Source of the DNA: a virus
Lineage: Duplodnaviria; Caudoviricetes
Virus record (IMG/VR): IMGVR_UViG_3300030060_000055
Coordinates: 1 to 58,571 of that record
Direction: 5' to 3' (one strand)
DNA: 58,571 nucleotides
Shown: positions 8,341-43,452 of the stretch, piece after piece
How positions within the stretch are numbered: position 1 is the stretch's first letter
Layout of the letters: each line of letters starts with the position of its first letter
Notes under the pieces: generated by a model
Seen by the model: the letters and a program-made list of their open reading frames with translations, nothing else
Told to the model about the DNA's origin: nothing
Database searches by the model: none
Made by a program: the position numbers and the translations under genes

Positions 8341-8537
8341 TGTCTAAGTCAGTAGAAACTGATAACTTACCTTTAGAAGCACGTTTAAGTGGTTTAGAAA
8401 GAGAGTACGCTCTACGTTATGAGTACATAGAGCGTAGACTCGATGAAGGTAGCAAGAAGTTTTTAAGAATAGAAAATATGCTGTGGGGTCTTTATGGTTT
8501 AGTTTCTGTTGCAGTCGCATATATTAAATTTATATGA
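8340..8537 (+). CDS. Small coiled-coil protein with C-terminal TM helix
   Basis: Hydrophobic C-terminus MLWGLYGLVSVAVAYIKFI. Confidence 0.55.
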   Translation: MSKSVETDNLPLEARLSGLEREYALRYEYIERRLDEGSKKFLRIENMLWGLYGLVSVAVAYIKFI

Positions 8538-8851
8538 TGGAAGAATCTGTAAAGAAAAAAATTAATCTTGAAGTAGAGATAGATGCTAATGCAAATAGTG
8601 CAGGTGACAATCCTTTTCAGAAGTGGATACACCTAGCAAGAACTGTTGATGCTTGGAGAATATTTCCAAGAGCGTTTGTAACTGTATATATCATATTACT
8701 TTATAAAGTTGTCACTTGGTTCATGGACATACCAGAACCTAACTTAGAACAAGCAGGTCTTGTGTCTATAGTGGTTGGTGCTATGGCAGCAGTCTTTGGT
8801 ATATATGCTGGTACATCAGGACAAAGTAAAAAGTTTAAAGGTGAGGATTAA
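8534..8851 (+). CDS. Two-TM membrane protein, possible holin
   Basis: DAWRIFPR followed by two hydrophobic helices and a basic tail. Confidence 0.55.
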   Translation: MMEESVKKKINLEVEIDANANSAGDNPFQKWIHLARTVDAWRIFPRAFVTVYIILLYKVVTWFMDIPEPNLEQAGLVSIVVGAMAAVFGIYAGTSGQSKKFKGED

Positions 8852-17547: not shown

Positions 17548-17892
17548 ATGGCAGTAACAAAAGCAATAACAAGTTGTACCCCATACGTTAATAGTAATAG
17601 CAAAGTTGCTAAATGGGATATAGAAATGACATATGAAAACGATAGTGAAGGAGATGCTACTTACTATAAATCAAGATTTTCTACTACAGTTAATCAAAAA
17701 GATACTGATGCAGATGGTAATGTAACAACTAACTTTACACTTAAAGCTAAAGGTTCTTTTAGTAACGCTGATTTAGTAGCACTTTGTCCTGTATCGCAAT
17801 GGGATATAGTATTTGCTAGTCAGGTAGATAGTGTTATTACTAATCCATCAGTAGACAATACACCTGATAACGATTTTAACGTACCTAGTTAA
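17548..17892 (+). CDS. Putative tail fibre assembly protein
   Basis: Directly after tail fibre; AGGAG RBS. Confidence 0.5.
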   Translation: MAVTKAITSCTPYVNSNSKVAKWDIEMTYENDSEGDATYYKSRFSTTVNQKDTDADGNVTTNFTLKAKGSFSNADLVALCPVSQWDIVFASQVDSVITNPSVDNTPDNDFNVPS

Positions 17893-18593
17893 TGGCAGAA
17901 GTTACAGTACATAACATGCCTTCTGTTTACGTTATGGAAACAGAGATGCCTATAAGTATGGTGAATGACCTTAACGATTACCTTGATGAATACAAAGAAG
18001 ACCAAGATAAAAAATCATTAGCTAATACTTTAGTAGGGCAAATATCTCAAGGCGAACAACTACTAATGGATAACGAAGACTCCAGAGTAAAAGAATATTC
18101 TGAGTTTATATGTAGTCTTGGTGCTGATTATGTTAATTTCTTTTTTAATAGCACAGGCAACAAACTAAACAATCAAAAAGCTATAACAATAGATGAAACT
18201 TGGTCAGTACATAGTTATGAAGGCGACTACAATCCTATACACGATCATGGCACTAAAACAATCATGGGTATATCTACTACAGGTTGGACTAAAGTACCGC
18301 AACAAATATTAGAACAACCTACTGCTGGTTCACCACAATATTCTTTATATCACGCATCTGGTGATTGTGATGGCTACATAGCTTTTAATTATGGTCGTAA
18401 CGAATTAATGAATACAGAAAGACTAAGACCACCACAGTCTTTTATGATGAAGCCAGAAGTAGGAAAACTATTAGTATTTCCTTCTTGGTTACAACACATG
18501 GTATATCCTTTTAAGGGTGAAGGTGAAAGAAGAACAGTAGCATCTAACCTTAACTGTTGGGATGTGCAACCAACAGAAGATGCCACTAACTAG
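17892..18593 (+). CDS. 2OG-Fe(II) oxygenase-like protein
   Basis: YNPIHDH, PEVGKLLVFPSWLQHMVYP, ERRTVASN. Confidence 0.85.
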   Translation: MAEVTVHNMPSVYVMETEMPISMVNDLNDYLDEYKEDQDKKSLANTLVGQISQGEQLLMDNEDSRVKEYSEFICSLGADYVNFFFNSTGNKLNNQKAITIDETWSVHSYEGDYNPIHDHGTKTIMGISTTGWTKVPQQILEQPTAGSPQYSLYHASGDCDGYIAFNYGRNELMNTERLRPPQSFMMKPEVGKLLVFPSWLQHMVYPFKGEGERRTVASNLNCWDVQPTEDATN

Positions 18594-27139: not shown

Positions 27140-30100
27140 ATGGCAGACGAACCAAGAAACACACCAAATCCTTTTGAGATATTTGGTTCAAATACTGGTA
27201 ATGTACCTGACCAATTTGATATTTTTGATACATATCAAAGACCTCCAACACAAGACAATACTTCCGAGCAACTAGGCACTGATAAAGTTAATGATAGATC
27301 ATTACCTATATTTGGTCTTGCTACAAATAACTTTACCCCTGAAGAAAACGATTGGATAGACAGCGTTATAGCTGCACCCAGAGGTGTATTGCGTGGTGCT
27401 GCAAGAACTATACCCTTATTAGGTGAAGGTGTATGGGGCATATTAGATTTAGCAACTAACCTTTCAGGAAAAGAAGATTGGTTGAATCCTAGAGAAAGTG
27501 CATTCATAGCTAGAATGGATGAACTGCGTGATGCTATTGGCTATGAAGATAGTGTAGCTGGTAGAACAGGTGAAGCATTAGGTAGCATACTAGGTTTTGT
27601 AGGGTCAACTATACTTACAGGTGGTGCTGGAGCAGCATCAAGAGTAGGTGCTGGTTATAACGCACTAAAAGCTGGAGAGTTAACTGCTGGGGCAGCAACT
27701 AAAAGTTTAGCATCAGCTATGCAAATAGCAGCACCGGGTTCTGCTATAGGTGTAGGAGAAGCTAGTGGAAGGATGCGTGAGTATGAAGCTGAGATAGGTG
27801 AAGATTTATCTATAGCAGATAGAAACTTGGCAACAGCACTTGCTATACCTTTAGGTGCAACAGAGGTACTACCTATAGTTAGACCTTTATCTATATTATT
27901 TTCTAAGATAACTAAACGAGGATTGCCTAAAGAAACTATTGATAGCTATATGGATTTAGCTAAGTCAGCTGCCATAACTGGTACAGCAGAGGGTGTGCAA
28001 GAAGCATTAGCAAGTATAGGTCAAGATGCTATTGAGAAGGGTGTATATAACGAATCAGCAACTATAGGTGATTCTATAGCATCAGAGTTTGGATATGGTG
28101 GTGGTGCTGGTGCTATCTTTGACTTAGGTGTTAACTTACTTACTAAAGGTAGACCAAGAGGAGGTAGACCTGTTGGACCAGTAGAAGATGATACAGGTGG
28201 ATTATCAGGAACAGAAGCTACAGAGGTAGAAGATGCATCTACTTTAGATGAAGGTAGACCTAACACAGTAGCACAGTTTCAAGGTAGTGAAGAGATAGTA
28301 TTAGATAATGAATTTGAAGTGCCTAAAGATGCAGAGGGTGATGCGGTAATACCTCCTGATGTAAAAGTTGATGATGAAGTAGATATGTATGATGCTCTTG
28401 GCAATTCATACAAAGCTAGAGTTACTGCCGTATCAGATTCTGGTAGCATAAAAATTATAAATCAACAGGGTGAAGAAGTTGTTGCAAATATGAGTCCTAC
28501 AGCAACTACATCTAATGTTAATAATCCAAATTATGAGTTTAAAACAGTAAGCCCTGCATTTAAAAAGTCTGTTAATAATAAAAAAAATGTAAGTGAGTTA
28601 AATGAACAAGAAATAGCAGCAGCACAACTTGCATTAGAAGCACGTATTGAAGAGGCTGGTATTCAATTGATTGGGTTAGATGCACTACAAGATTTAAACG
28701 CTCTCAAACTACATCAAAAAAGAAGACAACAACCTTTAGATACAACTGTTGAGAATCAAACTAAATTAGGACCACAACAAGAAATAGAAGCACAAGCACA
28801 GGCATTTAAAGATGAAGTGCCAACAATACCTGATGCTGAAGAACAAATAAAAACAGAAGCTGTAAGACAACAGTTACAAGAAGTAAGTCCTGAACTGCAA
28901 GCAAATTTAGATCAAGAGGTAGAACTTGAAAGGCAAATACAACAAGCAGAAGATGCTGACAATTTGAATGAAGCAGATGATTTAAAAGAAAAAATAAATC
29001 AAGTAAAAGATAAACAAACAGAGTTAATTAAAAAACAAAAAACACCTATAAGAAGAAGTAGATTAATACAAACTTTTAATAGACCAGATGGTGAGACATT
29101 TACAGCAAGATTTCCTGATAGAGAAAGTGTAGATGCATTTAGTAATAAGAATGTAGTTAAAACTAAAAACAAATTAAATTTAACTACACCAGCATACAAT
29201 CAGTTTAAAACTAAATATGATTCTTATGTAGCTGAAGAAGTTAACTCAGCATATAAATCTGATACAAGAGAATTTAAGTTACAAAGCTTTAGAGACTTTG
29301 TGGCACAAGAACAAGGTTCAGTACAAGTAGGAGATATATTAAGTCAAACAACTCTTAAGAATATTGATCCTAATGATGCAGCGTTTAAACGATTCTTGTA
29401 TCTAAATACAAAGAAAAGAAATTTAAAAGACTTAAATGGTCTACAAAGAAAAGAAATTTTCAGACAAATAGAAGCTTTGCCTACACAAACAGCAGTCAAT
29501 ACAAGTATAGATAAAGCATTTAGTGAAAGCATAGATAATAGACAAGCATTTAGTAAAGCTGAAGCTATAAAAGCTAGAACTAAAGAGTTAGAAAATAAAT
29601 ATACCAAAGCACAACTATTAGATTTAGCTAAAACTAATGGTGTAAGTGAAGAGTTTATACAAGATGCAGTAGGCACTAGAGACAAAACAACTATAGCAAA
29701 AGGTATAGCAAGAAAAGAAATACAGAATCAAATATCAGCAGAAGAAAACTATGAACAAGTTGTAAGTAGAAGTGTTCCTAATGTACAAGTTAGGAAAGTA
29801 AAAACTAAAGCAGCTGACCAAGCAAGAGGATTTCAACAATATAGTGTGTTATATCCTGATGACACAATTATAAAAACTTTAGTGCCAGCAAATATAGATG
29901 TTGCAGATGCAAAGGAGCAAGCAGCTAGACAAACATTTACACAAAGAGTAGAAAGATTAGAAGAAGAAAATATAAAAACTAAAGATGTACCAGATGCATC
30001 ACAACAAGATTATATACAGGCTGTTACTAACTCACTGTTTAAACGCACTAACCCATTAGCAGAATTATTATCTATAGCTGGACCACAAGTAAAACAAAGT

Positions 30101-33100
30101 AGAACACCAGCAATACAAACAGAACAAGTCCAAGACCTAATAGAAGAAGCACCGCAGTTAGAAGCACCTGATCTATCTGGCATTAATTATCAGGGAAACT
30201 TATATAAGTTTAAAGACAATATAAATGCCAGTGATTTTATAATGAATTTAAGGCGCATAGCTAAAAGAACTATGCCTGATGCAGATGTAGTTGCAGTAGA
30301 TACATTGTTTAATGAAAGTGGTGAAGAAGTAGCTGGTGTAACTATTGGTGACATAATAGCTATAAATTTAGAAACTAATCCTGAAAATGGTAGACCTAGA
30401 TTTGCTTCACCTACAGATACTGTCTATCACGAAGCTGTTCATTACTTTATAAATAATAATTATTTTAAACCAGAAGTTTTACAAATCTTAGCTGAGAATC
30501 AACAAAGAATATTTGATATAGCTGAGACAAGATTTGGTGGAAAAGTAGGTACTTTTGAAGAAGCTGTTGCTATAGCATCAGGATATTACAACGAACAAAA
30601 ACTACAAGGCAGAACCCCTTTTGAATTTACACCCGGAATAAGAAGAGTATTTGAACCTCTATTTAAATTTTTTAATCAGGTTGCTAAATACTTTAGTGGC
30701 AAAAAATATAGGAAACTAGAGGATGTATTTGATGCTATAAGAACAGGTGATTTATATCAAGATGCTGTAGATAATCCTAAGATACTTAGTCCACCACAAC
30801 AACAGTTCCAAGAAGAATTGTTTAAACAAACTGGATATGTAGGCTCATACAAAGGCGGATCAATAACAGAAGATATGAATCTTGATTATGATTCAAATAG
30901 AAACATGACACCTTTGTATAGCAGAACACCTTCTTTTGGTTTACAAGAACTAAAGATTAGTGAAATGGGTCAAAGGATTGATAGGTTACAAGATGCTGTA
31001 AATAATACTAAAACTAAATCTACTAAAGCAGATAAATGGTTAACAACTAATAAACAAGGACAAGAGTTATTAACAGGCTCTAACGTGCCTTTTAATAAAC
31101 TTTACCTACAAGATACTAGATTAGATGAATGGTTGTCAGAACAAGTTAATGAAGATGGCAATCCAAGAGAAGTAAGCATAGATGAAATAAAAAATTATTT
31201 AAAAACTAATACTGGTTTTATATCTATGCAAATGACAGGCGGTGATACTACAACTTATGTAAGAGCAACTAATATAAATGAACAACAAACTATAGAGTAT
31301 TATCAAAATGAAATTTTAAATAGCACTATAGCTTTAAATCAATTTACGTCAGGTGTGCAATCACATTTAGTTAATAGGGATGATACATATAAAGCATTAA
31401 AAGAAGAGTTTTATACAGGACCAGACGATCAAGGTTCAGGAGCATTCTACGATTTAACAAGAAATTTAGACCAAATAGAAGAGTCTTATAAAAAATTAAA
31501 TCTTTCTATGAAACAACCTATAGGAAGAAACTTTGATGTTTTAAGACAAGCATTAAATGTAGAAACTAAATCACCTGATTTTCTTTTTTCAGATGCTAAA
31601 GCTGGAGAAATAGAGACAGCTATAAATCAATTAACTGTATCAGGGCAGTTGCTACAAAATACAGATGCTCTAAGAAAGGCTGATCCTGATGGTCATTTAG
31701 AAAAATTTTTAGTAGCTTTAGAAAATAATAAAATAGTTAGTGATCCTATAATAGAAATATTAGATGAGATAAATACAGACTCATTTGATGGCGGTAATAG
31801 GTACAATAAATTAGATTTACAAGATAATAAATTAACTCAATTAGTTAATGCAAGAAATCAAGCAAAAAGACAAAACGAATATTTTACAAGGTTGTTATAT
31901 GGAGAGGGTACAACAGGTGAACTTAATCCTGTAATAAGATCATCATTTGAATCTGCTGGATATGCAACAACTCCCGGTTTTAACATAGATACTACAAGTG
32001 GTAAGTTTACTGATATACAAAGATTAGCATTTCAAGCTATTAAAGATGGCAATCCTAATAAATCAGAAGGACAAATAATACAAGAACGTCTACAAGGAAT
32101 ACCACAAGAAGTTGCAAACTTTACAGAAGATCAATTAGCAGAGTTTACACGTAGACGTAGATTTGATGGTGAAGATTATGGAACTACAGTACACGTAGAA
32201 AATAGTAGAAATGTTGTTTACGCTTGGAATCCCGGTGCTTCGCAAGAACAAAAAGGATACTATTCAAATCCACATTTTCCTAACTCTATACGTAACGCTT
32301 TTGTTCATGCAAGAATAAAAGATGTTTATGTATTAGATGATAATAATACTTTAAAGAAAATATTATTTATAGATGAAGTGCAGTCTGATATGTATGCAGA
32401 TGTAAAGAAAGCTATAGACAAATACTTAAATGAATTAAATGATGGTGATCCTAGAAAAGAAGGAGGTGCATCTTCTTTGACAGAAGCAGAAGTAAAAGAA
32501 GCATTAGAAGGTTATCCAACTACTCAAGATATGCCAGCTGTACCACTTATAGGATTTCCTAAACCTAACTTTAATAAGTGGCAAGATTTTATTATTGAAG
32601 AAATGAATATGCTTGCTGTTAATGAAGGGTTTGATGGCATAGCTATTGCTAGTACAGCAATACAAGCAGAAAGAAATGGTAATAATCTTAAGAACAATTT
32701 TAACTTTTTAAGTTTTTATCCTTCAGTAAAACCATCAGATATTTCTACCAATCTTAGTACAGAATTAACTCATACTCCTTCTGGACAAACAGTAGAAGAA
32801 AGCACTTTATTACAACAGGGATATTTAACACAAGAAGAATTAAATCAAGACGATCCTGTTACTCCTAAATTTATTAGAAGTGCAGCAGCACAATATTTTG
32901 GTGATGTATTTTCAAGAGATACTAACTCATATGAATTTAAAACATATGTAAATTATGCACGTTTAGTAGGTATGACAGATGGATTTATTACTAAAGATAT
33001 GACTTTATCTTTACAAGAATCTAATCCTATTCGTGGGCATTTTGTAGATGGTGTGAATTATTTAGGTAGAGGTATTGGAGAGACACAAGTAGGTAGTGTA

Positions 33101-36100
33101 TCTTCTATATTACCAAATGATCTTGCTGATTTAATTATAGGTCAAATACAAAATGGCATCAGATCAAATATGCAAAGACCTGATATCAATGTAATTACAC
33201 AACAAGAAGCTAGGCAAGATCAAAATAATAATTTAACTATTGATACTTCAAGGTTATTACGTAATGCAGGTAATCAATCAGCTATAGGTGCTGGATATAT
33301 AAACTTAAGAAAGTTAACTGATAATCAAACACAACAGTTTTTTTCTAAGTCAGGATGGGATATATATAGCAATACATACCCTAATAAAATTAAAAAATCT
33401 TTAGATAAACTAGGTATTAAATATGAAACACAAGGTCAATCTGTTAAGGAAATAATACAAGATATATTTGGTGCAGATTCTGATGTGACTATTAATAATG
33501 TAGTAGATAGAGACTTTCATTCTAATAGATTATATCAAGCACCATATGACGAGTTAGTAGAGCAAGAACAATTTACTGTAGATGAAGTTATATTTAGAAC
33601 TAAATCTGAAATAGATGCTAGAAAAGGTAAACCTTTATTACTACAAACAGCATTTAAAGATAATGCTAGATTGCTTTATAGAGGTGAGCCAGCAAAGAAA
33701 CATCAATCAAGATTTAATGTGCCAGTATTTACTTTTGAAAGTGATGCACAAGTAGTAAACAACCCAGCGAAATATTCTAGTACACCAGCAGATGCACAGA
33801 AAGCTAGTTATTGGAAAAGAATTGTAAACTTTTTAGGTAACCTTACAGAGAGTAAATACTTTAGTGGTCTTGGTAATCTTGAACAAAGAAAAGAATATCA
33901 AAGATTAAAAGGATTAACTGCTGGTGAAATTAATAAAGCCGAAAAAGTAGCTAAAGATTTTTATAATGATCTAGGACAATATCTTAATCCTAGAAAATCA
34001 CAAAAAACTAAAGAAGAACTTAATAGAAATGTACAACAGTTTAATGCTTTTATAGAGGGTGGCATGGATGCAGACCCTGCACTTATAACAGATGAAGGTT
34101 TAAGAAAGGTTGCTGTTAAAAGTAAACAAGCTATAGATAGAATAGGACAGATGTTAGTTCAAAGAGGTGTACTACCTAGATCAAAGTTTGAAGAAAATAG
34201 AGGAACATATTTACCTTTGTTATATATGAAACATATTCTTAATAATCCAACAGGTACTAAGTTTTCATATACAAAAGCTAGGAAAGATTTAACAGATGAA
34301 ACTAAATTAATACTAGGTGATATAACAGAACTATCACCAGAGTATAGAGTTCTTGCTGGTGTACAAAGACCATTGCGTGATATGGCAATATTAGATTTTT
34401 TTAATCAAGTTTCTAAGAATCAAAACTGGGCAATACGTAATGATGATATGTTAGTTACTATTGAACAAGGTGGAGTAGAACAAAAGGTAAGTGCTTTGTG
34501 GTTATTAGAAGAAGCTAAAAGATTACAAGAACAAGCAACTTATTTTGAGAATGGTCAACCTGAACAAGCACTAGCTATGAGAAATCTTGCACAGCAATAT
34601 GAACAACTAGGAATGCCTGTAGCAGAAAGACTAGGATATGGTGCTGATAAACCATTAGATGAAAACTTTAAGAGACTACCTACTACTAAACAGTATGGAA
34701 TGATGAGAGGTGTGGCTGTAAGAAAAGAAATTTATGATGATGTCATAGGTACTTTTACTATGGGTGATACTGATAATGCTTTTAGTAAAACCATAGCTGC
34801 TTTAGAAAAAGGCACAAGTATTTGGAAACTTCTTAAAGTACCACTTAACCCACCAACTGTAGTACGTAACGTAGGTTCTAACATGATACTTATGAATATA
34901 GTTGGGGGTGTGCCTATACATAAAGTATTGCCTAGAATGAGACAAGCTATAGAACAAATAAGAAGTAATGGTAAGTATTGGAAGATAGCTGAAGATTACG
35001 GCATACAAAATACACAGTTTACAAATCAAGAAATGCTACAAATAAGTGAAGAGTATTTAGATTTGTTACAAGAAGTTGATCCACTAGGACCAGTAGCTAA
35101 GTTTTTTAGACTGCCAAAATTGTTAACTGCTAGAGTATTTAAAACTGCTGGTGATGTATATCAATTTACAGAATCTGTAGGTAAGACAGCAGTAATAATA
35201 GATGCTATGGAAAGACAAGGCATGTCAGAGTTTGATGCATTTCAACTTGCACAGAAAGCTTTGTTTGATTATTCCGATGTACCTATGGCTGGTAAGTTAT
35301 TTAGGAAAGCACCTATAGGTATGCCTTTCTTTACTTTTTATTACAAAGCATTTCCAGCTTTAGTTGAAGCAGCTATTAATCATCCATTTAGATATGCACC
35401 ATACGTAGCCTTATCAGCTGGACTTACTGCTTTATCTGCATATGCATTTGGTTTTGAAGATGATGAAGAAGAAAAGTTACAAAAAGGATTAGAGCCTTGG
35501 CTTGCTAAAAGAACAGGTGTTTATGTACTGCCTTTTAAAGACAGTGATGGAAGATATCAATTTTTAGATATAGGATATTTCTTTCCTTGGACTATGTACA
35601 CAGATGCAGTAAGAGATATAGCTGGTGGTGATTTCTTTGAAGCACAAAGGACAACAGGATTTTTATCAGGACCTTTTTCAGATATTTTCCTAGCAATTAA
35701 AACTAATAAAGACCCGTTTACACAACGTACTATATGGGATAAACGTGATCCTGTAGAAGATAGAATACAAAATATGTTTTGGTATATGTATAGTTTAGGT
35801 ATGCCTTCATGGTTAACACCTAATGGTGCTATAAGTAAAACTACTAAAGCATTACAAGATATACCTAGACCAACAGGCGCACCAGCAGATACTGTGCCAC
35901 AAGCATTGTTACGTTTTGTTGGAGTAAACGTATATGGATTAGATACAGAAGAAACTAGGATAAGAAATATTAAGAAGATGAGACAAGAGATTCTTGATAT
36001 ACAACAAAGATTTAAGTATGCAATGGCAAATCAATCTTATACACAAGAAAAGAAAGATAGATTAAGACAGAGATACATGCAGATGATTAAAGAAAAAGTA

Positions 36101-36181
36101 GATTTATTGCAAAGGTATAAAATAGATACAGCAATACCAAGACATATATTAGAAAGGGAGAGTAAATTCCAAGATGGATAG
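27140..36181 (+). CDS. Giant (3013 aa) internal virion / large polyvalent protein
   Basis: Hydrophobic Gly/Ala N-terminal region, HEAVH zincin motif, LFIDEVQSD motif, helical ejection-protein-like C-terminus. Confidence 0.8.
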   Translation: MADEPRNTPNPFEIFGSNTGNVPDQFDIFDTYQRPPTQDNTSEQLGTDKVNDRSLPIFGLATNNFTPEENDWIDSVIAAPRGVLRGAARTIPLLGEGVWGILDLATNLSGKEDWLNPRESAFIARMDELRDAIGYEDSVAGRTGEALGSILGFVGSTILTGGAGAASRVGAGYNALKAGELTAGAATKSLASAMQIAAPGSAIGVGEASGRMREYEAEIGEDLSIADRNLATALAIPLGATEVLPIVRPLSILFSKITKRGLPKETIDSYMDLAKSAAITGTAEGVQEALASIGQDAIEKGVYNESATIGDSIASEFGYGGGAGAIFDLGVNLLTKGRPRGGRPVGPVEDDTGGLSGTEATEVEDASTLDEGRPNTVAQFQGSEEIVLDNEFEVPKDAEGDAVIPPDVKVDDEVDMYDALGNSYKARVTAVSDSGSIKIINQQGEEVVANMSPTATTSNVNNPNYEFKTVSPAFKKSVNNKKNVSELNEQEIAAAQLALEARIEEAGIQLIGLDALQDLNALKLHQKRRQQPLDTTVENQTKLGPQQEIEAQAQAFKDEVPTIPDAEEQIKTEAVRQQLQEVSPELQANLDQEVELERQIQQAEDADNLNEADDLKEKINQVKDKQTELIKKQKTPIRRSRLIQTFNRPDGETFTARFPDRESVDAFSNKNVVKTKNKLNLTTPAYNQFKTKYDSYVAEEVNSAYKSDTREFKLQSFRDFVAQEQGSVQVGDILSQTTLKNIDPNDAAFKRFLYLNTKKRNLKDLNGLQRKEIFRQIEALPTQTAVNTSIDKAFSESIDNRQAFSKAEAIKARTKELENKYTKAQLLDLAKTNGVSEEFIQDAVGTRDKTTIAKGIARKEIQNQISAEENYEQVVSRSVPNVQVRKVKTKAADQARGFQQYSVLYPDDTIIKTLVPANIDVADAKEQAARQTFTQRVERLEEENIKTKDVPDASQQDYIQAVTNSLFKRTNPLAELLSIAGPQVKQSRTPAIQTEQVQDLIEEAPQLEAPDLSGINYQGNLYKFKDNINASDFIMNLRRIAKRTMPDADVVAVDTLFNESGEEVAGVTIGDIIAINLETNPENGRPRFASPTDTVYHEAVHYFINNNYFKPEVLQILAENQQRIFDIAETRFGGKVGTFEEAVAIASGYYNEQKLQGRTPFEFTPGIRRVFEPLFKFFNQVAKYFSGKKYRKLEDVFDAIRTGDLYQDAVDNPKILSPPQQQFQEELFKQTGYVGSYKGGSITEDMNLDYDSNRNMTPLYSRTPSFGLQELKISEMGQRIDRLQDAVNNTKTKSTKADKWLTTNKQGQELLTGSNVPFNKLYLQDTRLDEWLSEQVNEDGNPREVSIDEIKNYLKTNTGFISMQMTGGDTTTYVRATNINEQQTIEYYQNEILNSTIALNQFTSGVQSHLVNRDDTYKALKEEFYTGPDDQGSGAFYDLTRNLDQIEESYKKLNLSMKQPIGRNFDVLRQALNVETKSPDFLFSDAKAGEIETAINQLTVSGQLLQNTDALRKADPDGHLEKFLVALENNKIVSDPIIEILDEINTDSFDGGNRYNKLDLQDNKLTQLVNARNQAKRQNEYFTRLLYGEGTTGELNPVIRSSFESAGYATTPGFNIDTTSGKFTDIQRLAFQAIKDGNPNKSEGQIIQERLQGIPQEVANFTEDQLAEFTRRRRFDGEDYGTTVHVENSRNVVYAWNPGASQEQKGYYSNPHFPNSIRNAFVHARIKDVYVLDDNNTLKKILFIDEVQSDMYADVKKAIDKYLNELNDGDPRKEGGASSLTEAEVKEALEGYPTTQDMPAVPLIGFPKPNFNKWQDFIIEEMNMLAVNEGFDGIAIASTAIQAERNGNNLKNNFNFLSFYPSVKPSDISTNLSTELTHTPSGQTVEESTLLQQGYLTQEELNQDDPVTPKFIRSAAAQYFGDVFSRDTNSYEFKTYVNYARLVGMTDGFITKDMTLSLQESNPIRGHFVDGVNYLGRGIGETQVGSVSSILPNDLADLIIGQIQNGIRSNMQRPDINVITQQEARQDQNNNLTIDTSRLLRNAGNQSAIGAGYINLRKLTDNQTQQFFSKSGWDIYSNTYPNKIKKSLDKLGIKYETQGQSVKEIIQDIFGADSDVTINNVVDRDFHSNRLYQAPYDELVEQEQFTVDEVIFRTKSEIDARKGKPLLLQTAFKDNARLLYRGEPAKKHQSRFNVPVFTFESDAQVVNNPAKYSSTPADAQKASYWKRIVNFLGNLTESKYFSGLGNLEQRKEYQRLKGLTAGEINKAEKVAKDFYNDLGQYLNPRKSQKTKEELNRNVQQFNAFIEGGMDADPALITDEGLRKVAVKSKQAIDRIGQMLVQRGVLPRSKFEENRGTYLPLLYMKHILNNPTGTKFSYTKARKDLTDETKLILGDITELSPEYRVLAGVQRPLRDMAILDFFNQVSKNQNWAIRNDDMLVTIEQGGVEQKVSALWLLEEAKRLQEQATYFENGQPEQALAMRNLAQQYEQLGMPVAERLGYGADKPLDENFKRLPTTKQYGMMRGVAVRKEIYDDVIGTFTMGDTDNAFSKTIAALEKGTSIWKLLKVPLNPPTVVRNVGSNMILMNIVGGVPIHKVLPRMRQAIEQIRSNGKYWKIAEDYGIQNTQFTNQEMLQISEEYLDLLQEVDPLGPVAKFFRLPKLLTARVFKTAGDVYQFTESVGKTAVIIDAMERQGMSEFDAFQLAQKALFDYSDVPMAGKLFRKAPIGMPFFTFYYKAFPALVEAAINHPFRYAPYVALSAGLTALSAYAFGFEDDEEEKLQKGLEPWLAKRTGVYVLPFKDSDGRYQFLDIGYFFPWTMYTDAVRDIAGGDFFEAQRTTGFLSGPFSDIFLAIKTNKDPFTQRTIWDKRDPVEDRIQNMFWYMYSLGMPSWLTPNGAISKTTKALQDIPRPTGAPADTVPQALLRFVGVNVYGLDTEETRIRNIKKMRQEILDIQQRFKYAMANQSYTQEKKDRLRQRYMQMIKEKVDLLQRYKIDTAIPRHILERESKFQDG

Positions 36182-36611
36182 AGATAAATTAGTAAAAGAA
36201 ATAATACAAGACGAAGGGTTTGAATATGAAATATATTTAGACCATTTAGGATACCCAACATTTGGTGTTGGTCATTTAATTATTCCTAAAGATAAAGAAT
36301 ATGGCATGGATGTAGGAACACCAGTATCTGAAGAAAGAATATTAGAGTGTTTAAACGCTGACATAGACATAGTGTGTATGGAGTTAGATAGAAACATGTC
36401 ATGGTGGAGAGACTTAGATGATGATAAACAAAGAGTTATGGCGAACATGGCTTTCAACTTAGGTCTACCTAGATTGGGAGGATTCAAAAAATTTTTGAAG
36501 GCTATGGAGGAAGGAGATTTCCAAACAGCCGCTGTCGAAATGATGGATAGTAGATGGGCGACACAGGTAGGGAACAGAGCCAAAAGGTTGAGAGATAGAG
36601 TGGCATCGTGA
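36174..36611 (+). CDS. Endolysin, T4-type lysozyme (GH24)
   Basis: DEG...YLDHLGYPTFGVGH, NMAFNLG, SRWATQVGNRAKRL. Confidence 0.95.
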   Translation: MDRDKLVKEIIQDEGFEYEIYLDHLGYPTFGVGHLIIPKDKEYGMDVGTPVSEERILECLNADIDIVCMELDRNMSWWRDLDDDKQRVMANMAFNLGLPRLGGFKKFLKAMEEGDFQTAAVEMMDSRWATQVGNRAKRLRDRVAS

Positions 36612-36904
36612 CAGAAGCATTTGATCTAATAGCTAAGCTAGGACTGCCTATAGCTAGTGGATTAATAATGGCTTTCTTTATATTCTTAGTTATGAAACAA
36701 CTCATGGATGGTCTAGTAGATGAGATCAAAACCATAGAGGGTATATCTAAGATGCTTATAACAAGAGCATCAACAATGAACAACGACATCATACGTATAG
36801 ATACCAGTGTATCTAGCGCACTTAACATATCGCCAGACTTAGAACGCATAGCTAGAGCAGAGAACTTTGTAGAGGATGGCAGTATAGATGCAAGGCGAGA
36901 CTAA
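36608..36904 (+). CDS. Single-TM coiled-coil membrane protein
   Basis: LGLPIASGLIMAFFIFLV TM then coiled coil; GTGA overlap with endolysin. Confidence 0.75.
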   Translation: MTEAFDLIAKLGLPIASGLIMAFFIFLVMKQLMDGLVDEIKTIEGISKMLITRASTMNNDIIRIDTSVSSALNISPDLERIARAENFVEDGSIDARRD

Positions 36905-37158
36905 TGGATATAGCAAAGATAGTACAAGACTTTGGTTTTCCTGTAGTTATGGTAGTAGGTCTAGGATATTTCGTATACTTTGTATGGCAGACTATAACCA
37001 ATAAGATAGACCCAGCAGTTGCCGAAATGAAAACAACAATCATTAGGCTTACCGACCAGCTTAGATTGTTAGATCAAGATATGATTCGTTTACAACAAAA
37101 GGTAAACACAGTCTTAGAACTTAAAGAAAAAGAAAAGGAAGATGCAAAACAACGATAA
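36904..37158 (+). CDS. Single-TM coiled-coil membrane protein, paralogue of preceding ORF
   Basis: FGFPVVMVVGLGYFVYFVW TM; LDQDMIRL resembles MNNDIIRI. Confidence 0.75.
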   Translation: MDIAKIVQDFGFPVVMVVGLGYFVYFVWQTITNKIDPAVAEMKTTIIRLTDQLRLLDQDMIRLQQKVNTVLELKEKEKEDAKQR

Positions 37159-37609
37159 TATATTTGCGATTGTAGGTATAACATTGGTGTTATTAGTTGT
37201 GGTAATACAACAGTTACAGTCTGATGAAATGGTGCATCAATTTAAAAATCCTAGTTTTTCAGGTGTTGGTACATCCAGTCACTATCTAACTATAGAAAAC
37301 CAAGAGTTCTCTAGGAAAGAAGCTATACGTGAAGAGATACAAGCTTATGTAGAAGAACTAGAAAGAGAAGCTGATAACACTACGTTAGCTAGATTTATAC
37401 GTAACCTAGAGAGTAGAATATACGCACAACTAAGCAGACAATTAGTAGATAGTTTGTTTGGAGAGACTGCATCTGAGTTTGGTATCCTAGAACTAGAAGG
37501 CAACACCATAGAATACAAAGTAGAGGATGACAAAGTAACACTTATAATTACAGATGAAGAAGGCAATACAACAGAAATTACTGTACCTCTTGGTTCTTTT
37601 ACTTTCTAG
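37142..37609 (+). CDS. csgF: CsgF-like curli assembly component
   Basis: Signal-like hydrophobic stretch then MVHQFKNPSFSG (CsgF N-terminal NPxFGG-like motif); FIRNLESRIYAQLSRQLVDSLFG; ends TTEITVP; directly upstream of csgG. Confidence 0.8.
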   Translation: MQNNDNIFAIVGITLVLLVVVIQQLQSDEMVHQFKNPSFSGVGTSSHYLTIENQEFSRKEAIREEIQAYVEELEREADNTTLARFIRNLESRIYAQLSRQLVDSLFGETASEFGILELEGNTIEYKVEDDKVTLIITDEEGNTTEITVPLGSFTF

Positions 37610-38360
37610 TTGTTCATTAATCATACCCCCATTAGATAATGGGTTGCCCCCGATAAGGAACATTGAGCCAGCAGAAGTTGGTTCTCTATTAACTAAACTA
37701 GCAGAAGTATCTAAACCTGAACGCAAACCTGTAGTAGCTATATATCCTTCCTCGTTTAAAGATAATACAGGACAGCGTAGAAGTAATAGCCAGTATGCTA
37801 GTTTTAGCACAGCAGTAACACAAGCACCTGATGCATATCTTATTAGAGCATTACAACACTCTAATGTATTTGATGTAGTAGAGCGTACAGGACTAGATAA
37901 TCTTACTAAAGAACGACAGATTATACGTACAACTCGTGAGTCATTTGATGAAAAACAAAAGGTAAAACCTTTATTGTTTGCTGGTTTATTAATGGAAGGT
38001 GGTGTTGTAAGTTATGAAACCAATGTTAAATCAGGTGGTGCTGGTGCAAGATACTTAGGTATAGGTGCATCAAAACAATATAGACAGGACTCAGTTACTA
38101 TATCTTTACGTACAGTTTCAGTAAGCACAGGTAAAATATTGTTAGAAGTGTTAGTAACTAAGTCAATTCTTAGTGCATCTATCTCTTCAGATGTGTTCAG
38201 ATTTTATACAAATAATACTGAATTAGTTGAAATTGAAAGTGGTATAGTAGAGAATGAGTCTATAAATATTGCTTTGCAGATGGCTATTGAGTTAGCAGTT
38301 CTACAAACAATAGAGGAGGGTTATGAAAAAGGTTATTGGAAACAAAAAGACCACACTTAA
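37554..38360 (+). CDS. csgG: CsgG curli secretion outer-membrane lipoprotein
   Basis: Lipobox LLSSC; FKDNTGQR, FSTAVTQ, VERTGLDNLTKERQII, SGGAGARYLGIG, YRQDSVTISLRTVSVSTG. Confidence 0.93.
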   Translation: MKKAIQQKLLYLLVLLLSSCSLIIPPLDNGLPPIRNIEPAEVGSLLTKLAEVSKPERKPVVAIYPSSFKDNTGQRRSNSQYASFSTAVTQAPDAYLIRALQHSNVFDVVERTGLDNLTKERQIIRTTRESFDEKQKVKPLLFAGLLMEGGVVSYETNVKSGGAGARYLGIGASKQYRQDSVTISLRTVSVSTGKILLEVLVTKSILSASISSDVFRFYTNNTELVEIESGIVENESINIALQMAIELAVLQTIEEGYEKGYWKQKDHT

Positions 38361-39063
38361 TTTATTGTTTCTACTAATATCTTTTAGCGTATATACAGCT
38401 GACAATGAAGTATACATAGATCAGTCAGGTGCAACATCTAACTTAGATATAGAACAAGTTGGCGGTGGTGGTAATATTATTGGTGGATCAGATGCTACAG
38501 CTGGTGCTTCTAATATGACTCCATTGGATTTAGATGGTGCAACTATGACGCTAGACATATTACAGAAAGGTGCATCAAATAAATTTCTTGGTGATATATG
38601 GGCAGATACTTACACAGGTTACTTCTCATTTATAGGTGATAGTAATACATTCAATATGTCTACTGATGAAACCAATGCCACAGGTGCAGATGGTTCTAAT
38701 GTAAATGTACAGGTCACAGGTAATACAAATACTATGACACTCAATCATGCTATGACTGCACTTGCTGCTAATTTAGATTTAGATTGGATAGTGCAAGGTG
38801 GGGGTAATAGTATTACAGCAGCTATAGATGTAGATGGTGCTACTAACTACATGGATATTGATGGTAATGATAATACTGTAACCTATGATGGTGATGGATA
38901 TGCTGGTGGTTATTTCTACCTAGATCATACAGGTGGATCAAGAACATTTAATATAGATCAGGAATCTACATCTGATAATGATTGGCTCAAGATTACATCT
39001 GTTGGCTCTAATGGTACAGTTTGCGTTACTCAGTCAGACGCAACAACTTCATTCGTCTGTTGA
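38323..39063 (+). CDS. Curlin-like secreted beta-repeat protein
   Basis: Signal peptide (..FSVYTA/DNEVYIDQSG); ~22-aa repeats with (Q/T/D)xGxxN turns; adjacent to csgG. Confidence 0.7.
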   Translation: MKKVIGNKKTTLNLLFLLISFSVYTADNEVYIDQSGATSNLDIEQVGGGGNIIGGSDATAGASNMTPLDLDGATMTLDILQKGASNKFLGDIWADTYTGYFSFIGDSNTFNMSTDETNATGADGSNVNVQVTGNTNTMTLNHAMTALAANLDLDWIVQGGGNSITAAIDVDGATNYMDIDGNDNTVTYDGDGYAGGYFYLDHTGGSRTFNIDQESTSDNDWLKITSVGSNGTVCVTQSDATTSFVC

Positions 39064-40093
39064 TATAGGTTCTATATCTGAACTCAGAGGCAATGCACAA
39101 GTCTTAAGAGACAAACCTTATGGTGCTGAACTAGAGTTTAACATTCAACAAATGGATGATGTCCGCACAGAGGCGGGCAGAGTTGCCATTACTTTTGAAG
39201 ATAGTTCTACAGTTAAATTAACTGAACATTCTAAGTTAGTTATAGATGAATATATCTATGACCCTGACCCATCAAAATCTAAGATGGCACTTAAGTTTGC
39301 TAGTGGTACAGCACGTTTTATTACAGGCAAGTTTAATAATAAAAGTAATATATCTATTAAAACACCTACTGCTGATATAGCTATTAGGGGTACAGACTTT
39401 ACTTGTACAGTAGATGAATTAGGTAGAAGTCTAGTTATATTGTTGCCTGATGAGAATGGTATATCTAGTGGCGAGATAGTTGTAGCTACAGCTATGGGTA
39501 GCGTTACATTAAACAAACCTTATCAAGCTACCACAGTATCTGTATATGAAAACAATCCTACTAAACCTGTTACGTTAGATATATCACTAGACTTAATAGA
39601 TAACATGTTGATTGTTAATCCTCCGCAAGAAACAGAACAATCAATAGAGGAAACAAGAACACAATCATCTGTAGATTATTTAGAGTTTGATGATCTTGAT
39701 ATAGATTATTTGAATGAAGATTTTCTTGATGCAGAGGCAGACCTTGAGTTCACAGAACTAGATGTAAACTATTTAGATGTAAATTTTTTAGAAGATTTAC
39801 TTAATGTATTAGATGCATTAGCTATATCTAAAGAAGAAGATCAATTAAAACAAGGCGGTGTAGGTATTCGTATAGTTGGTACGGAAATAGGACAAGATAA
39901 AGATACACAGATTACAACTATAGTTACAGGGCAGACTATAAGTTTAAACAGAACAGTAAATCAAAGTGCAAGATTAAATCTTGATGGTTCTAATAGTTAT
40001 ACGATTATACTTATACAAGATGGTGTTGCTAATACAGTTAAGATTAATGGTGGTTCATCTACAACAATAACAATTAAACAAGGGTCAGGATGA
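38978..40093 (+). CDS. FecR-domain periplasmic protein with acidic linker and beta-rich C-terminus
   Basis: DDVRTEAGRVAITFEDSSTVKLTEHSKLVID, IKTPTADIAIRGTDF; start codon uncertain. Confidence 0.85.
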   Translation: MIGSRLHLLALMVQFALLSQTQQLHSSVDIGSISELRGNAQVLRDKPYGAELEFNIQQMDDVRTEAGRVAITFEDSSTVKLTEHSKLVIDEYIYDPDPSKSKMALKFASGTARFITGKFNNKSNISIKTPTADIAIRGTDFTCTVDELGRSLVILLPDENGISSGEIVVATAMGSVTLNKPYQATTVSVYENNPTKPVTLDISLDLIDNMLIVNPPQETEQSIEETRTQSSVDYLEFDDLDIDYLNEDFLDAEADLEFTELDVNYLDVNFLEDLLNVLDALAISKEEDQLKQGGVGIRIVGTEIGQDKDTQITTIVTGQTISLNRTVNQSARLNLDGSNSYTIILIQDGVANTVKINGGSSTTITIKQGSG

Positions 40094-41856
40094 AGAAAAG
40101 TATTATATTTATAGGTTTGTTTATTACGCTAGGTTCAATATATATTTATCAACCTGTAGCCTATGAAATATTAAAACTAAAAACCTTTGATGCTTTTGTA
40201 GAAGAGAAAGAACCTTCAGGATATTTTACTGTACTTAATATAACTGAAGATGATATAACTAACGAGGGCGGTTATCCTTTACCAAGACAGAGGTTAAGTG
40301 AGATACAAGCGCAGTTGTTAGAAAATGGTGCTTCTGGTATTGGCTGGGTAATCGCCTTCCCACAGCCAGACAGATTTGGTGGTGATGTAGAGTTTAAACA
40401 ATCTTTAGAGCAGGCTGCGTCCGTGCTGGCAATGTTTGAAGGTAACAATGGCTTATATCCTCCTACTACTGGTACTGTAATATTGGGTGATGATATAGGC
40501 GGGATGCAAATAGAAGGTGTGATCCAGAACATTGATATGTTTAAACAATCAGCAGCGCAGGGTTTGGCTGTAGCCCGGACCGATGTAGATAATCTTATAC
40601 GTAGACTTCCTTTGTTAATGCGTACACCTGATGGATGGACACCAGCTTACGGAACAGAAGTATTAAAGATACTGGCTGGTGCAGATACTTATGTTATTAA
40701 AACAAATGATAATGGATTAGAAGAGATACGAGTTAGAGGTTTGCCACCTGTGCCTGTAGATTCTTTAGGTCGTAAGTGGATTAGTTGGGTTAATACACCG
40801 CAGACAGACTTAGCTACTATGGATGTACAAGATAAGTTTGTGTTTATAGGTTTTACAGCTAAAGGTATTATGCCTCAGTTAGCTACGCCTATAGGATTAT
40901 TAGAACCACATAAAATACAAGCAAGCTTAGCTGAAAGTATACTTATACAAGATAGTCCTTACATACCTGACTACGCTCTAGCACTAGAGATATTATTATT
41001 TATTGCCTCTGTCGTATTTGTTTGGCTTGTATTAAACGTATTTGGTATTACTTTAGGGATATCATCCTTTGTTATAGTTTTTGCTTCTACGGCTTTCTAT
41101 GGCGTTTATACGATACAAAGTGGTATATTAATAGATGTAACTTGGGCATTGATATCACAATTTATTACTGCAAGTGTTGCTTTCTACTTAAGATTTAGAG
41201 AACAATACAAGTTAAGACAACAAATAAAAAAACAATTTGAACATTATCTTGACCCAAGACAGGTAAAAGAATTACAAAAAAATCCTAGCTTGTTAAAGTT
41301 AGGGGGAGAAAAACGATATGCTACCTTTTTATTTACTGATGTTAGGGGATTCACTTCTATGTCAGAGTCTCTTGAACCGGAAGACGTTACCTACATTATG
41401 AATAAAGCTTTGACTGCACAACAAAGTGCGGTGCAAAAACATGGTGGTATGGTAGACAAATATATAGGTGATGCAATGATGGCAATATTTAATGCACCTA
41501 TAGACCAAGACTTCCATGAAAATAAAGCTATAGATTGTGCTGTGGATATACAGCGTAACATGGAAAGTTTAAACGTAGAGTTAGCGGACCGGGGTATCCC
41601 AGCTGTAGCTATTGGTATAGGTATAAACACAGGCTATGCTGTAGTAGGAAACATGGGAAGTGAATCTAGATTTGATTACACAGCTATCGGTGATGCTGTA
41701 AATATAGGAGCAAGACTAGAAAGCGGTACAAAAGAGGCTGGTGTTGATGTGTTAATAGGATATAACACTGCTATAAAAAGTGATTATGAGTTAAGATTAT
41801 TAGAACCTTTACATGTAAAAGGTAAGGAGAAAGCATTAGATGTTTACACACTATAA
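40090..41856 (+). CDS. CHASE2-domain class III adenylate/guanylate cyclase
   Basis: N-terminal TM, CHASE2 (YPLPRQRL, FPQPDRFGGD, DVDNLIRRLPL), three TMs, catalytic FTDVRGFT, DKYIGDAMM, DYTAIGDAVNIGARLE. Confidence 0.93.
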   Translation: MKKSIIFIGLFITLGSIYIYQPVAYEILKLKTFDAFVEEKEPSGYFTVLNITEDDITNEGGYPLPRQRLSEIQAQLLENGASGIGWVIAFPQPDRFGGDVEFKQSLEQAASVLAMFEGNNGLYPPTTGTVILGDDIGGMQIEGVIQNIDMFKQSAAQGLAVARTDVDNLIRRLPLLMRTPDGWTPAYGTEVLKILAGADTYVIKTNDNGLEEIRVRGLPPVPVDSLGRKWISWVNTPQTDLATMDVQDKFVFIGFTAKGIMPQLATPIGLLEPHKIQASLAESILIQDSPYIPDYALALEILLFIASVVFVWLVLNVFGITLGISSFVIVFASTAFYGVYTIQSGILIDVTWALISQFITASVAFYLRFREQYKLRQQIKKQFEHYLDPRQVKELQKNPSLLKLGGEKRYATFLFTDVRGFTSMSESLEPEDVTYIMNKALTAQQSAVQKHGGMVDKYIGDAMMAIFNAPIDQDFHENKAIDCAVDIQRNMESLNVELADRGIPAVAIGIGINTGYAVVGNMGSESRFDYTAIGDAVNIGARLESGTKEAGVDVLIGYNTAIKSDYELRLLEPLHVKGKEKALDVYTL

Positions 41857-41888
41857 AAAATTGGCTGCGCCCGCACGTGGTGGTGAAG

Positions 41889-42290
41889 ATGTTTAAAATA
41901 AGTGTCGGACTTGCAATCGCTCTGGTCTTGTCTGGTATATGGATATGGAGTTTAAACGCAACTATAACGCAGCTTCAGGCAAATCAGATCGTACTAGAAA
42001 CTGAAGTCGCTAAACAGAATGAGCAAATAAAAAAGAATTTGGAACAGCAAGCGCAGACTTATGCGCAGATAGACAGCTTAACAAAGAAGAATCAGGAGTC
42101 TATGCGTGAAGTAAACGCACTCAAGCAGACATTCGCTAAGCATGACTTGGATAATCTTGCCCTAGCAAAACCCAAGATGATACAAACTAGAGTCAATAGA
42201 GCGAGCAAGAGAGTGTTCGATGACCTAGTTAAGATAACTAACCCTACACAATTTGATGAGACAGATGAAGAAACTAGCAATACTGATTAG
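41889..42290 (+). CDS. Inner-membrane spanin (Rz-like)
   Basis: N-terminal TM then long coiled coil; overlaps downstream lipoprotein. Confidence 0.8.
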   Translation: MFKISVGLAIALVLSGIWIWSLNATITQLQANQIVLETEVAKQNEQIKKNLEQQAQTYAQIDSLTKKNQESMREVNALKQTFAKHDLDNLALAKPKMIQTRVNRASKRVFDDLVKITNPTQFDETDEETSNTD

Positions 42291-42615
42291 CTTTTGCCTG
42301 TTGGCAAGTGGATGTTCGTTGATGAGACAGGCAGTCAAGCCTATAGAAGTGGTCAACATAGAGGAAAGACCGCCTATGTTTCACCCTCCATTGCCTATGG
42401 AAATGCAGATGATGGAGTTCGATTGGGAGGTTCTAACGCCTGAAATCATGCAAGAGTACCTCACCCTTGTCGAAGAAGGTAAAGCACCTAGACAGGCTTA
42501 TTATGCGCTTACAACGAAGGATTATGAGAACATCAGCAACAACATGGCTGAGATCAAGAGATACACAAGGGATATCCTTGCCATCGTAGAATACTACAGA
42601 GACTTAGACGAGTAG
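42265..42615 (+). CDS. Outer-membrane spanin lipoprotein (Rz1-like)
   Basis: MKKLAILISFCLLASGC lipobox; Pro-rich segment; YYALTTKDYENISNN. Confidence 0.8.
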   Translation: MKKLAILISFCLLASGCSLMRQAVKPIEVVNIEERPPMFHPPLPMEMQMMEFDWEVLTPEIMQEYLTLVEEGKAPRQAYYALTTKDYENISNNMAEIKRYTRDILAIVEYYRDLDE

Positions 42616-42837: not shown

Positions 42838-43452
42838 CTATGTTGCTTTTGCTTTTGGATAAGGCATGATTGGGTAATTAAGATTGGCTTTAGCTTTTTT
42901 TGTAAAAGATTTATCTCCCACAAATATTACATATCTGTGTTTTAAAGACCTTAATCTGTAACCTACATCATCACCATATTCTTCCTCCATTTGTTTGTAA
43001 GTTTTGCCTCTGTATGTAGCATGATGCAGATGTGGTTTCGACTTTAAATAAATTTCTTTAATAGGTTTAGTAATACCTGTGTATAAAAAATTTGTGGCTT
43101 GATACACAATACCTACATGACCTTGTGTTGAGTCTGCATAACTAACAACAATTTTGTTGCCTAACTTCTTTAGAGAATTGCCTACTAAAAAAGATGCTTC
43201 GTTCTTGTTGTTATTTTTTAAAACCAATCTATTCAACTCTATAACATCTTTTTTAAAATGCTCTCCACATACTCCTTTGAGTAGCGTGTGTGATGGTGGT
43301 ATTCCATAACTACATATACCTAATAAATCTTTATCAGAATAAAGACCATAAGCAATTTGTAGTGGTGGCATCCTCTTTGCGTAATGAATATCTAATATAA
43401 AAGGTTTTGTTTCTTCATAAGAAACTTTTTTAATTTCATATTTTTCTTTCAC
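42838..43452 (-). CDS. Mom-like (GNAT fold) DNA modification protein
   Basis: HYAKRMP, IELNRL, NEASFLVGNSLKKL, VSYADSTQGHVGIVYQATNFLYTG, KHRYVIF. Confidence 0.75.
   Translation of the reverse strand: MKEKYEIKKVSYEETKPFILDIHYAKRMPPLQIAYGLYSDKDLLGICSYGIPPSHTLLKGVCGEHFKKDVIELNRLVLKNNNKNEASFLVGNSLKKLGNKIVVSYADSTQGHVGIVYQATNFLYTGITKPIKEIYLKSKPHLHHATYRGKTYKQMEEEYGDDVGYRLRSLKHRYVIFVGDKSFTKKAKANLNYPIMPYPKAKAT

Follow-up and report, generated by a model that had tools for sequence, protein, structure and literature searches.

Curli (type VIII) secretion genes are known from several marine phages. Zaragoza-Solas et al. (2020; PMC7029224) first saw a csgF/csgG cluster, in pelagimyophages, and Buchholz et al. 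(2022; PMC9004378) described the cluster in phage Melnitz. Wittmers et al. (2022; PMC9599517) then reported the module in nine genomes of HTVC023P-type podoviruses as well as in myophages. In their list the module runs from one or two proteins labelled 'histidine kinases' through CsgF, CsgG, CsgA/B and FecR, frequently with a further CsgA/B, to an adenylate cyclase, and regulatory roles are discussed for FecR and the cyclase; they also mapped its distribution in ocean viromes, found its expression in metatranscriptomes and proposed roles in superinfection defence, sibling capture, import and recombination. Here we analyse a seven-gene cassette of this kind in IMG/VR record IMGVR_UViG_3300030060_000055, all 58,571 nucleotides (nt) of which are referred to as the window.

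The window copy has the same genes, gene order and phage type as the published pelagiphage type VIII secretion system (T8SS)/curli module; it is without the optional second curlin gene, and nothing essential differs. Because the whole cassette, including FecR and cyclase, is described in PMC9599517, the core finding is already known, and the initial annotation of the window, made from the sequence alone, was outdated in knowing of no functional description of the whole cassette in a podovirus-type genome. That paper alone was found to join curli, phage, adenylate cyclase and FecR, no paper was found combining CsgG with CHASE2, and the available main text of PMC9599517 makes no mention of CHASE2, endolysin, holin, spanin or lysozyme. 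What is added here is the refutation of the kinase label, the adjacency to lysis genes together with an alternative cargo, a bacterial six-gene version and recurrent FecR-CHASE2 pairs. The simplest reading of the locus is late curlin-fibre export: at about even confidence, we take the published module to be late-expressed cargo that would export curlin via a phage-built pore.

Composition and linkage of the cassette

The record represents a whole virus of 58.6 kb (CheckV 100%) and carries terminase, portal, capsid, tail, ejection and replication genes. Its portal protein is nearest to those of the Pelagibacter phages HTVC023P (47%), 023Pt_psg01 (46%) and HTVC027P (44%), and on its sequence the phage is classed as an HTVC023P-type podovirus. 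The cassette (36608-41856) consists of seven plus-strand open reading frames (ORFs) that overlap or abut one another, with junctions of -1 to -86 nt (family matches with E values in brackets; aa, amino acids; TM, transmembrane):

36608..36904, + strand: TM-A, a single-pass membrane protein of 98 aa (phrog_18771, 8.7e-22)
36904..37158, + strand: TM-B, a single-pass membrane protein of 84 aa and paralogue of TM-A (phrog_18771, 1.2e-25)
37142..37609, + strand: CsgF homologue (PF10614, 3e-18; phrog_35372, 8.9e-45)
37554..38360, + strand: CsgG outer-membrane lipoprotein channel (PF03783, 2.7e-52)
38323..39063, + strand: curlin-repeat secreted protein of 246 aa, the candidate fibre subunit (signal peptide; family-profile matches)
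38978..40093, + strand: periplasmic FecR-domain protein (PF04773, 4e-13)
40090..41856, + strand: CHASE2 class III adenylate cyclase (PF05226, 1.8e-25; PF00211, Guanylate_cyc, 4.3e-18)

The initial annotation had recognized these co-oriented ORFs and named each of them; the ORFs are real, and all seven identities hold on Pfam, PHROG and structure matches. In the profile searches CsgG, CsgF, FecR, CHASE2 and Guanylate_cyc were all matched, and only the Pfam Curlin_rpt model fell short, reaching E 0.17 with the single sequence of the 246-aa protein.

Linkage was surveyed in the best 80 of 184 CsgG relatives in viral contigs, which have CsgG at least 84% identical and represent several phage backbones; a locus enters a count only if its sequence reaches far enough on the side in question. 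Co-occurrence across phages had been set beforehand as a refuting test, and it proved very consistent. CsgF precedes CsgG in 75/75 loci, and a phrog_18771-type TM gene lies upstream in 65/65, as a TM-A/TM-B pair in 28 and as a single 116-aa form (TM116) in 37. Downstream, curlin follows in all 62 loci, FecR in 49/49 and the cyclase in 41/44 (absent in L021, L026 and L057). When all viral loci were de-duplicated, the cyclase was present in 62/79, and one of the 17 loci without it (L104) is probably cut by the contig end. This linkage is far beyond chance. That FecR always accompanies the pore in the loci examined and the cyclase does not gives a handle on the function of the cassette: since the cyclase is missing from some cassettes and FecR never is, sensing through cyclic AMP (cAMP) cannot be the sole job of the cassette.

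The order of the cassette genes is the same in the T4-like phages HTVC008M and Melnitz, in line with the statement in the initial annotation that csgF and csgG have been reported in marine T4-like phages; a DNA-level search of the phage collection matched the HTVC008M csgG alone. Between phages of at least four different backbones the core proteins share 76-100% identity, which points to selection and frequent exchange. A second variant of the core, about 45% identical and with a second curlin as in the myophages (L101-L105, L107, L114), sits between well-conserved TM and cyclase genes, an arrangement that shows recombination inside the module.

These mosaic loci carry myophage-like CsgF, CsgG, curlin and FecR with 27-51% identity to the window, and the second curlin gene is present wherever the sequence reaches that far. 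TM-A and TM-B are 80-96% identical in L101-L105 and L107, and the cyclase is 81-82% identical in L103 and L105, the two of these loci whose sequence includes it; L114 is more diverged (TM-A 43%, TM-B 49%, cyclase 66%).

Pore, curlin, FecR protein and cyclase

CsgG, CsgF and a curlin-repeat subunit are common to the phage cassette and the enterobacterial curli system (PMC7304575, PMC6957492), to which the phage adds FecR, a CHASE2 cyclase and two small membrane proteins, with no CsgE found. The PF10614 match of CsgF covers profile positions 3-132 of 132, and the protein begins with a signal sequence (hydrophobic segment 7-25); a phmmer search against solved CsgF gave no match. CsgG matches E. 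coli CsgG (3x2r) at 6.4e-45 over residues 7-264, with the lipobox Cys20 aligned.

For the 246-aa protein, families proved more informative than the single sequence. Its family profile (alignment A3) matches the Pontibacter curli subunit (PDB 8c50) at 1.9e-8 and E. coli CsgA (8enq) at 0.18, and hhalign joins the family to that of the Curlin_rpt-positive second curlin (alignment A4) with a probability of 99.4% (2.9e-21). The predicted structure (pLDDT 80) is all beta. In an all-against-all structural alignment its best match was 8c50_A (Z 18.7, rmsd 8.6, 192 aligned), with generic beta-helices ranking below (Z 16 to 10); Foldseek returned nothing for this model at E ≤ 0.001. On these profile and model comparisons we regard the protein as a true curlin homologue with a predicted beta-solenoid fold. 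The initial annotation had favoured a sensing device 'rather than a simple amyloid factory', a preference that is not borne out, a homologue of this kind being compatible with an amyloid factory.

In the model of the FecR-domain protein (mean pLDDT 60), a confident beta domain (residues 28-200) is followed by an acidic, disordered linker (209-309, about 100 residues) and a low-confidence C-terminal beta domain. The signal-peptide-like N-terminus runs straight into the beta domain, with no membrane anchor. The beta domain aligns with the CCSSD of PupR (6ovk_R; Z 15.7, rmsd 2.6, 137 aligned) and with BDI_1681 (4m0n; Z 14.4), and the PF04773 domain and PupR/BDI_1681 fold are thus shared with FecR-type anti-sigma factors. 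Those factors have a cytoplasmic anti-sigma domain and a membrane anchor, whereas the phage protein has neither, shows no STN match and instead carries its acidic disordered linker and small beta domain. A role as an anti-sigma factor was accordingly rejected: the domain and the anchor are missing, and no extracytoplasmic function (ECF) sigma factor (Sigma70_r2) was found in the phage. FecR-type proteins self-cleave at a Gly-Thr motif (PMC8144685), of which the family's invariant Gly138-Thr139, compared as a motif only, is reminiscent.

Residues 27-120 of the FecR model also resemble the RIN plug domain of the adhesin MpIBP (5ix9; rmsd 2.5, 72/76 residues, 25% identity), at a Z of 7.2, in the range that the tool calls common. 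In LapA/MpIBP-type adhesins, as in the phage protein, a folded periplasmic domain precedes a long extended segment, but RIN plugs the TolC of a type I system (PMC5550230) and not CsgG. By sequence, the FecR family profile had 0 matches among solved chains at E ≤ 1. The idea of a curlin repeat in the C-terminal domain was reduced to a guess, as no similarity to the curlin family was seen (probability 1.7%).

The cyclase has TM-like segments at 5-23, 297-315 and 346-364, with a predicted topology of TM segment, periplasmic CHASE2 domain, TM bundle and cytoplasmic cyclase domain. It matches Cya2-type cyclases (6fht, 4.8e-36; 2w01, 3.3e-32) and holds D417, D461, K457, T531, N538 and R542, which we take from the class III literature to serve metal binding (D417 and D461), adenine recognition (K457 and T531) and the transition state (N538 and R542). 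In alignment A6 these residues are invariant or nearly so, except T531, which is not listed and has the consensus S; K457 aligns with the Lys of the engineered adenylate cyclase 6fht and with the Glu of 2w01. From its residues, the protein looks like an active, catalytically intact adenylate cyclase. The PycC models match it at 3.9e-27, a match that a class III domain might well give; a Pycsar defence system was rejected, as no cassette protein matches an effector model (PycTM/PycTIR). A complex prediction for CHASE2 (24-296) with FecR (28-215) gave ipSAE values of 0.01 and 0.01, which speak neither for nor against binding.

Both small membrane proteins are labelled histidine kinases in PMC9599517. 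TM-A has a TM segment at 11-29, a helical tail and a conserved acidic/basic C-terminus, with zero His and zero Cys; TM-B has one TM segment and a coiled-coil-like tail with a basic end, again with zero His and no Cys. Neither matches a Pfam family at E ≤ 0.01, and TM-A matches none at E ≤ 1. Lacking a phospho-accepting His, a DHp or HATPase_c domain and any Pfam family, they are not histidine kinases, and the 'kinase' label should go. An alignment of 23 members resolves two orthologous subfamilies conserved from podoviruses to myophages. TM-A orthologues occur in myophage cassettes and none were found in the bacterial loci L197 and L198 described below, and by sequence both are phage-specific, single-pass inner-membrane proteins. 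PADLOC found nothing for the small membrane proteins.

Fibre export and competing readings

If late curlin-fibre export is right, the cassette would be late-expressed cargo situated where the structural-lysis operon ends. At a late stage of infection, the phage would build a CsgG/CsgF pore in a host without one (curli genes are absent from the hosts reported for related phages; PMC9599517, PMC9004378), and the curlin protein exported through it would coat or link the infected cell, serving superinfection exclusion, receptor masking or aggregation. As every cassette has it, the FecR-domain protein would be an obligatory accessory that serves the pore from the periplasm. Most cassettes pair it with the CHASE2 cyclase, which would form a frequent but dispensable sensor arm; the pairing would follow a recurrent bacterial sensor module that reports envelope status to the cytoplasm as cAMP. 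Viral curli proteins were reported at all 65 ocean virome stations analysed, at about 0.1% of assembled viral proteins (PMC9599517), so the module probably alters the surface or fate of very many infected marine cells.

Several observations weigh against fibre export. The eyelet of the E. coli CsgG channel is formed by Tyr66, Asn70 and Phe71 (PMC7304575); in the phage CsgG it is only partly kept, the equivalent of the Phe (F84) alone being retained and varying between F and L in relatives. The second curlin gene, which matches Pfam Curlin_rpt clearly (L103: 5.8e-13), is the one that the window is without. A search for CsgE (PF10627) gave no match in the 58.6-kb record, with a positive E. coli control. 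CsgE was reportedly also found missing from many non-enterobacterial curli operons by Dueholm et al. in 2012. No clumping was seen by Buchholz et al. among cells infected with Melnitz (PMC9004378), and the export model leaves the role of TM-A and TM-B unexplained. No cyclic nucleotide (cNMP)-binding domain was found in the phage. Among 61 genomes from the family of a Candidatus Pelagibacter metagenome-assembled genome (MAG), taken as the presumed host family, just two have such a domain, a count that is indicative only, the host of this phage being presumed; a class III cyclase occurs in 3/61, and one of these is the cassette contig itself. Finally, the surveys cover close relatives, and part of the further loci was fetched via genes adjoining lysis genes. 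An active-looking cyclase without a conventional reader in the phage, and with readers rare in the presumed host family, is itself a handle on function.

The initial annotation had proposed a trans-envelope sensor, in which curlin, CsgG/CsgF, the FecR protein and the CHASE2 cyclase turn an outside event (superinfection or cell contact, to which we add neighbour lysate) into cAMP. We consider this circuit plausible but unproven and, on balance, unlikely. The conserved gene order and co-occurrence fit it, as does the predicted intactness of the cyclase, and the FecR domain has the fold of PupR, whose own domain contacts an outer-membrane transducer.

The link between FecR and CHASE2 that the initial annotation had assumed is backed by both genomes and literature. 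Of 80 bacterial loci with a FecR homologue, 21 have a CHASE2 cyclase no more than 7 kb from it, and 16 of these are without CsgG. The Burkholderia 'BiofilmReg' operon combines LysM/FecR with a CHASE2 kinase (PMC5192318), and in Sinorhizobium (S.) meliloti the genes run clr, cyaD1, smc02177 (FecR), smc02178 (PMC5498481). As in the phage, a periplasmic FecR-domain protein is there encoded beside a CHASE2 receptor. In S. meliloti, moreover, transmission of a protein signal to the CHASE2 cyclases CyaD1/D2/K depends on NsrA, an outer-membrane beta-barrel protein, as found experimentally (PMC7529298, PMC13001267).

The precedents differ from the cassette, however, in their outer-membrane partner, which is not CsgG, and in their output, through the Crp-type reader Clr in S. 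meliloti and a kinase/response regulator in Burkholderia, with no reader found in the phage. Within S. meliloti, the FecR-domain gene beside cyaD1, smc02177, is dispensable for signal perception (PMC5498481). Against the circuit also stand the cassettes without a cyclase (3/44 to 17/79, FecR always being kept), the rarity of cNMP receptors in the presumed host family, and a curlin protein that resembles an ordinary fibre subunit.

Slightly more doubtful is the proposal that Buchholz et al. made for Melnitz (PMC9004378), a module for lysis timing or envelope breaching. Here the TM proteins would act like holin and antiholin, CsgG/CsgF would be a gated outer-membrane hole and the cyclase would set the time of lysis. 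It is suggested by position, as the window cassette lies between endolysin and Rz/Rz1 genes, flanks on which the initial annotation was silent:

36174..36611, + strand: endolysin (PF00959, Phage_lysozyme, 1.1e-11; phrog_7 endolysin, 1e-17)
41877..42290, + strand: Rz-like i-spanin (phrog_739, 3.1e-10; N-terminal TM segment 8-26)
42253..42615, + strand: Rz1-like o-spanin lipoprotein (phrog_812, 2.6e-15; lipobox Cys in the N-terminus; overlaps the 3' end of Rz)
8534..8851, + strand: two-TM protein of 105 aa in the structural region, far from the cassette (phrog_10198, 4.6e-20; phrog_9990, 2.2e-4)

From endolysin through cyclase every gene overlaps or abuts the next; TM-A begins 4 nt inside the 3' end of the endolysin gene, and the spanins start 20 nt 3' of the cyclase. 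PHROG scans of the flanks revealed four arrangements: endolysin, TM-A, TM-B, core, Rz, Rz1, as in the window; endonuclease, TM116, core, Rz, Rz1, endolysin; endonuclease, TM116, core, phrog_1544, endolysin; and phrog_10198, TM-A, TM-B, core, Rz, Rz1, endolysin. Podovirus cassettes nearly always adjoin lysis genes, one of which lies at most 1.5 kb downstream in 26/28 CsgG-anchored loci (exceptions, L026 and L021). The TM genes, a phage-only addition to the bacterial core, also give faint holin signals: TM116 matches holin phrog_4898 at 3e-4 to 6e-4, and the ESM Atlas returned Holin_BhlA for the small TM proteins at 0.85, below the tool's line of 0.9, alongside unnamed viral clusters at 0.97.

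Other features of the locus count against a lysis role. The TM genes travel with the cassette in the myophages HTVC008M and Melnitz, where no lysis gene is annotated in the 15.8-kb stretches examined. TM-A and TM-B were rejected as the sole holin candidates, as the window also has the two-TM protein at 8534-8851; the phrog_10198/1544/9990 family is present in every arrangement and adjoins endolysin or TM-A in other cassette loci, which makes this 105-aa protein, by sequence, the more likely holin of this phage. With spanins present, an extra breach of the outer membrane is not needed.

The same site, moreover, holds unrelated secreted cargo in cassette-less relatives. In two backbones (L106; L346 and L335) one alternative pair occupies it, an N/T-rich secreted protein of 337-450 aa (L106 versus L346, 4e-63) and a large secreted protein, and the TM-A gene of L106 is cut after about 20 residues. 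The bor gene of lambda and the Stx genes are likewise cargo adjoining lysis genes in late operons. We infer that the cassette sits among lysis genes mainly because the site is a cargo hot spot and gives late co-expression. A promoter and terminator scan over 35.5-43.5 kb showed no enrichment.

The alternative cargo lies at L106:11007-13161, L346:4091-7474 and L335:797-4180. The L106 sequence stops inside the large protein, and L346 and L335 add a 122-aa TM/coiled-coil protein at the site, which was rejected as a relative of TM-A/TM-B (probability 0.7%).

A tether and sensor that times lysis would combine elements of these readings and strikes us as improbable. The FecR domain would plug CsgG at its periplasmic mouth, much as RIN does in LapA-type adhesins, its acidic linker of about 100 aa would run through the pore, the C-terminal domain would sit on the curlin fibre, and the cyclase would be switched by pull. 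If so, load on the fibre from a second phage, a neighbour cell or lysate proteins would move the plug against CHASE2, and the cAMP would be read by phage factors such as TM-A/TM-B, giving a switch like lysis inhibition. With a host family largely devoid of cAMP signalling, cAMP would on this account be a private phage signal.

Very improbable, finally, is an uptake channel, suggested by Zaragoza-Solas et al. (PMC7029224) and Wittmers et al. (PMC9599517), in which a CsgG pore left ungated (no CsgE was found in the phage) admits cofactors, siderophores or other solutes to the periplasm: it leaves CsgF, the universal curlin (62/62) and FecR (49/49) unexplained, and for genes placed in the late operon there is little time in which nutrition could matter.

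Bacterial counterparts and neighbouring genes

Among the best 80 bacterial CsgG loci, 74 have CsgG with or without CsgF only, and the other six, which hold the full cassette, are MAG contigs no longer than 39 kb. Their gene content leads us to read these six as phage DNA; in L119, the sole one with its flanks scanned, a gp44-type clamp loader is found together with an endolysin-like gene. The FecR-family search uncovered a different situation in two Caulobacteraceae MAG contigs (L197 and L198; 32 and 82 kb), which hold a six-gene version in the order CsgF, CsgG, two curlin-like genes, FecR and CHASE2 cyclase, with no TM-A/TM-B. These cassettes have ordinary bacterial flanks and a GC content near that of the flanks. 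According to PMC9599517, bacterial T8SS operons do not include FecR or the cyclase, and the two contigs are exceptions to this statement. The six-gene version is rare: of 301 genomes sampled from that order, only the one that supplied the query has it. A quick tree of 42 CsgG sequences places the 17 cassette-linked ones, including the two bacterial, in a single clade (SH-aLRT 97) but does not give a direction of transfer.

About 450 bp 3' of the CHASE2 cyclase of L197, after a possible 71-aa ORF, lies a gene for a Pycsar-type PycTM effector (L197:10548-11141; PF18967, 8.8e-25; PADLOC PycTM, 9.6e-18); in its sister contig, L198, this place is taken by a TetR gene.

Directly upstream of the endolysin in the window is a 3013-aa ORF (27140-36181) with no PHROG match that is likely to encode an internal or ejection protein. 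In 37 viral contigs the last 499 residues are 65-100% identical, and the C-terminus matches one distant phage record. In HTVC008M and several podovirus loci, the cassette has a 2OG-Fe(II) oxygenase gene immediately or shortly upstream (L001:1309-1929; L060:5386-6090; L073:5146-5889); in the window it is found at 17892-18593, 18 kb from the cassette. Elsewhere the window encodes a GroES-like co-chaperonin (3915-4301; phrog_3188), a Mom-like DNA modification protein (42838-43452; phrog_1384, 1.8e-51) and an AAA protein of a 'porphyrin biosynthesis' PHROG (54836-56089; phrog_249).

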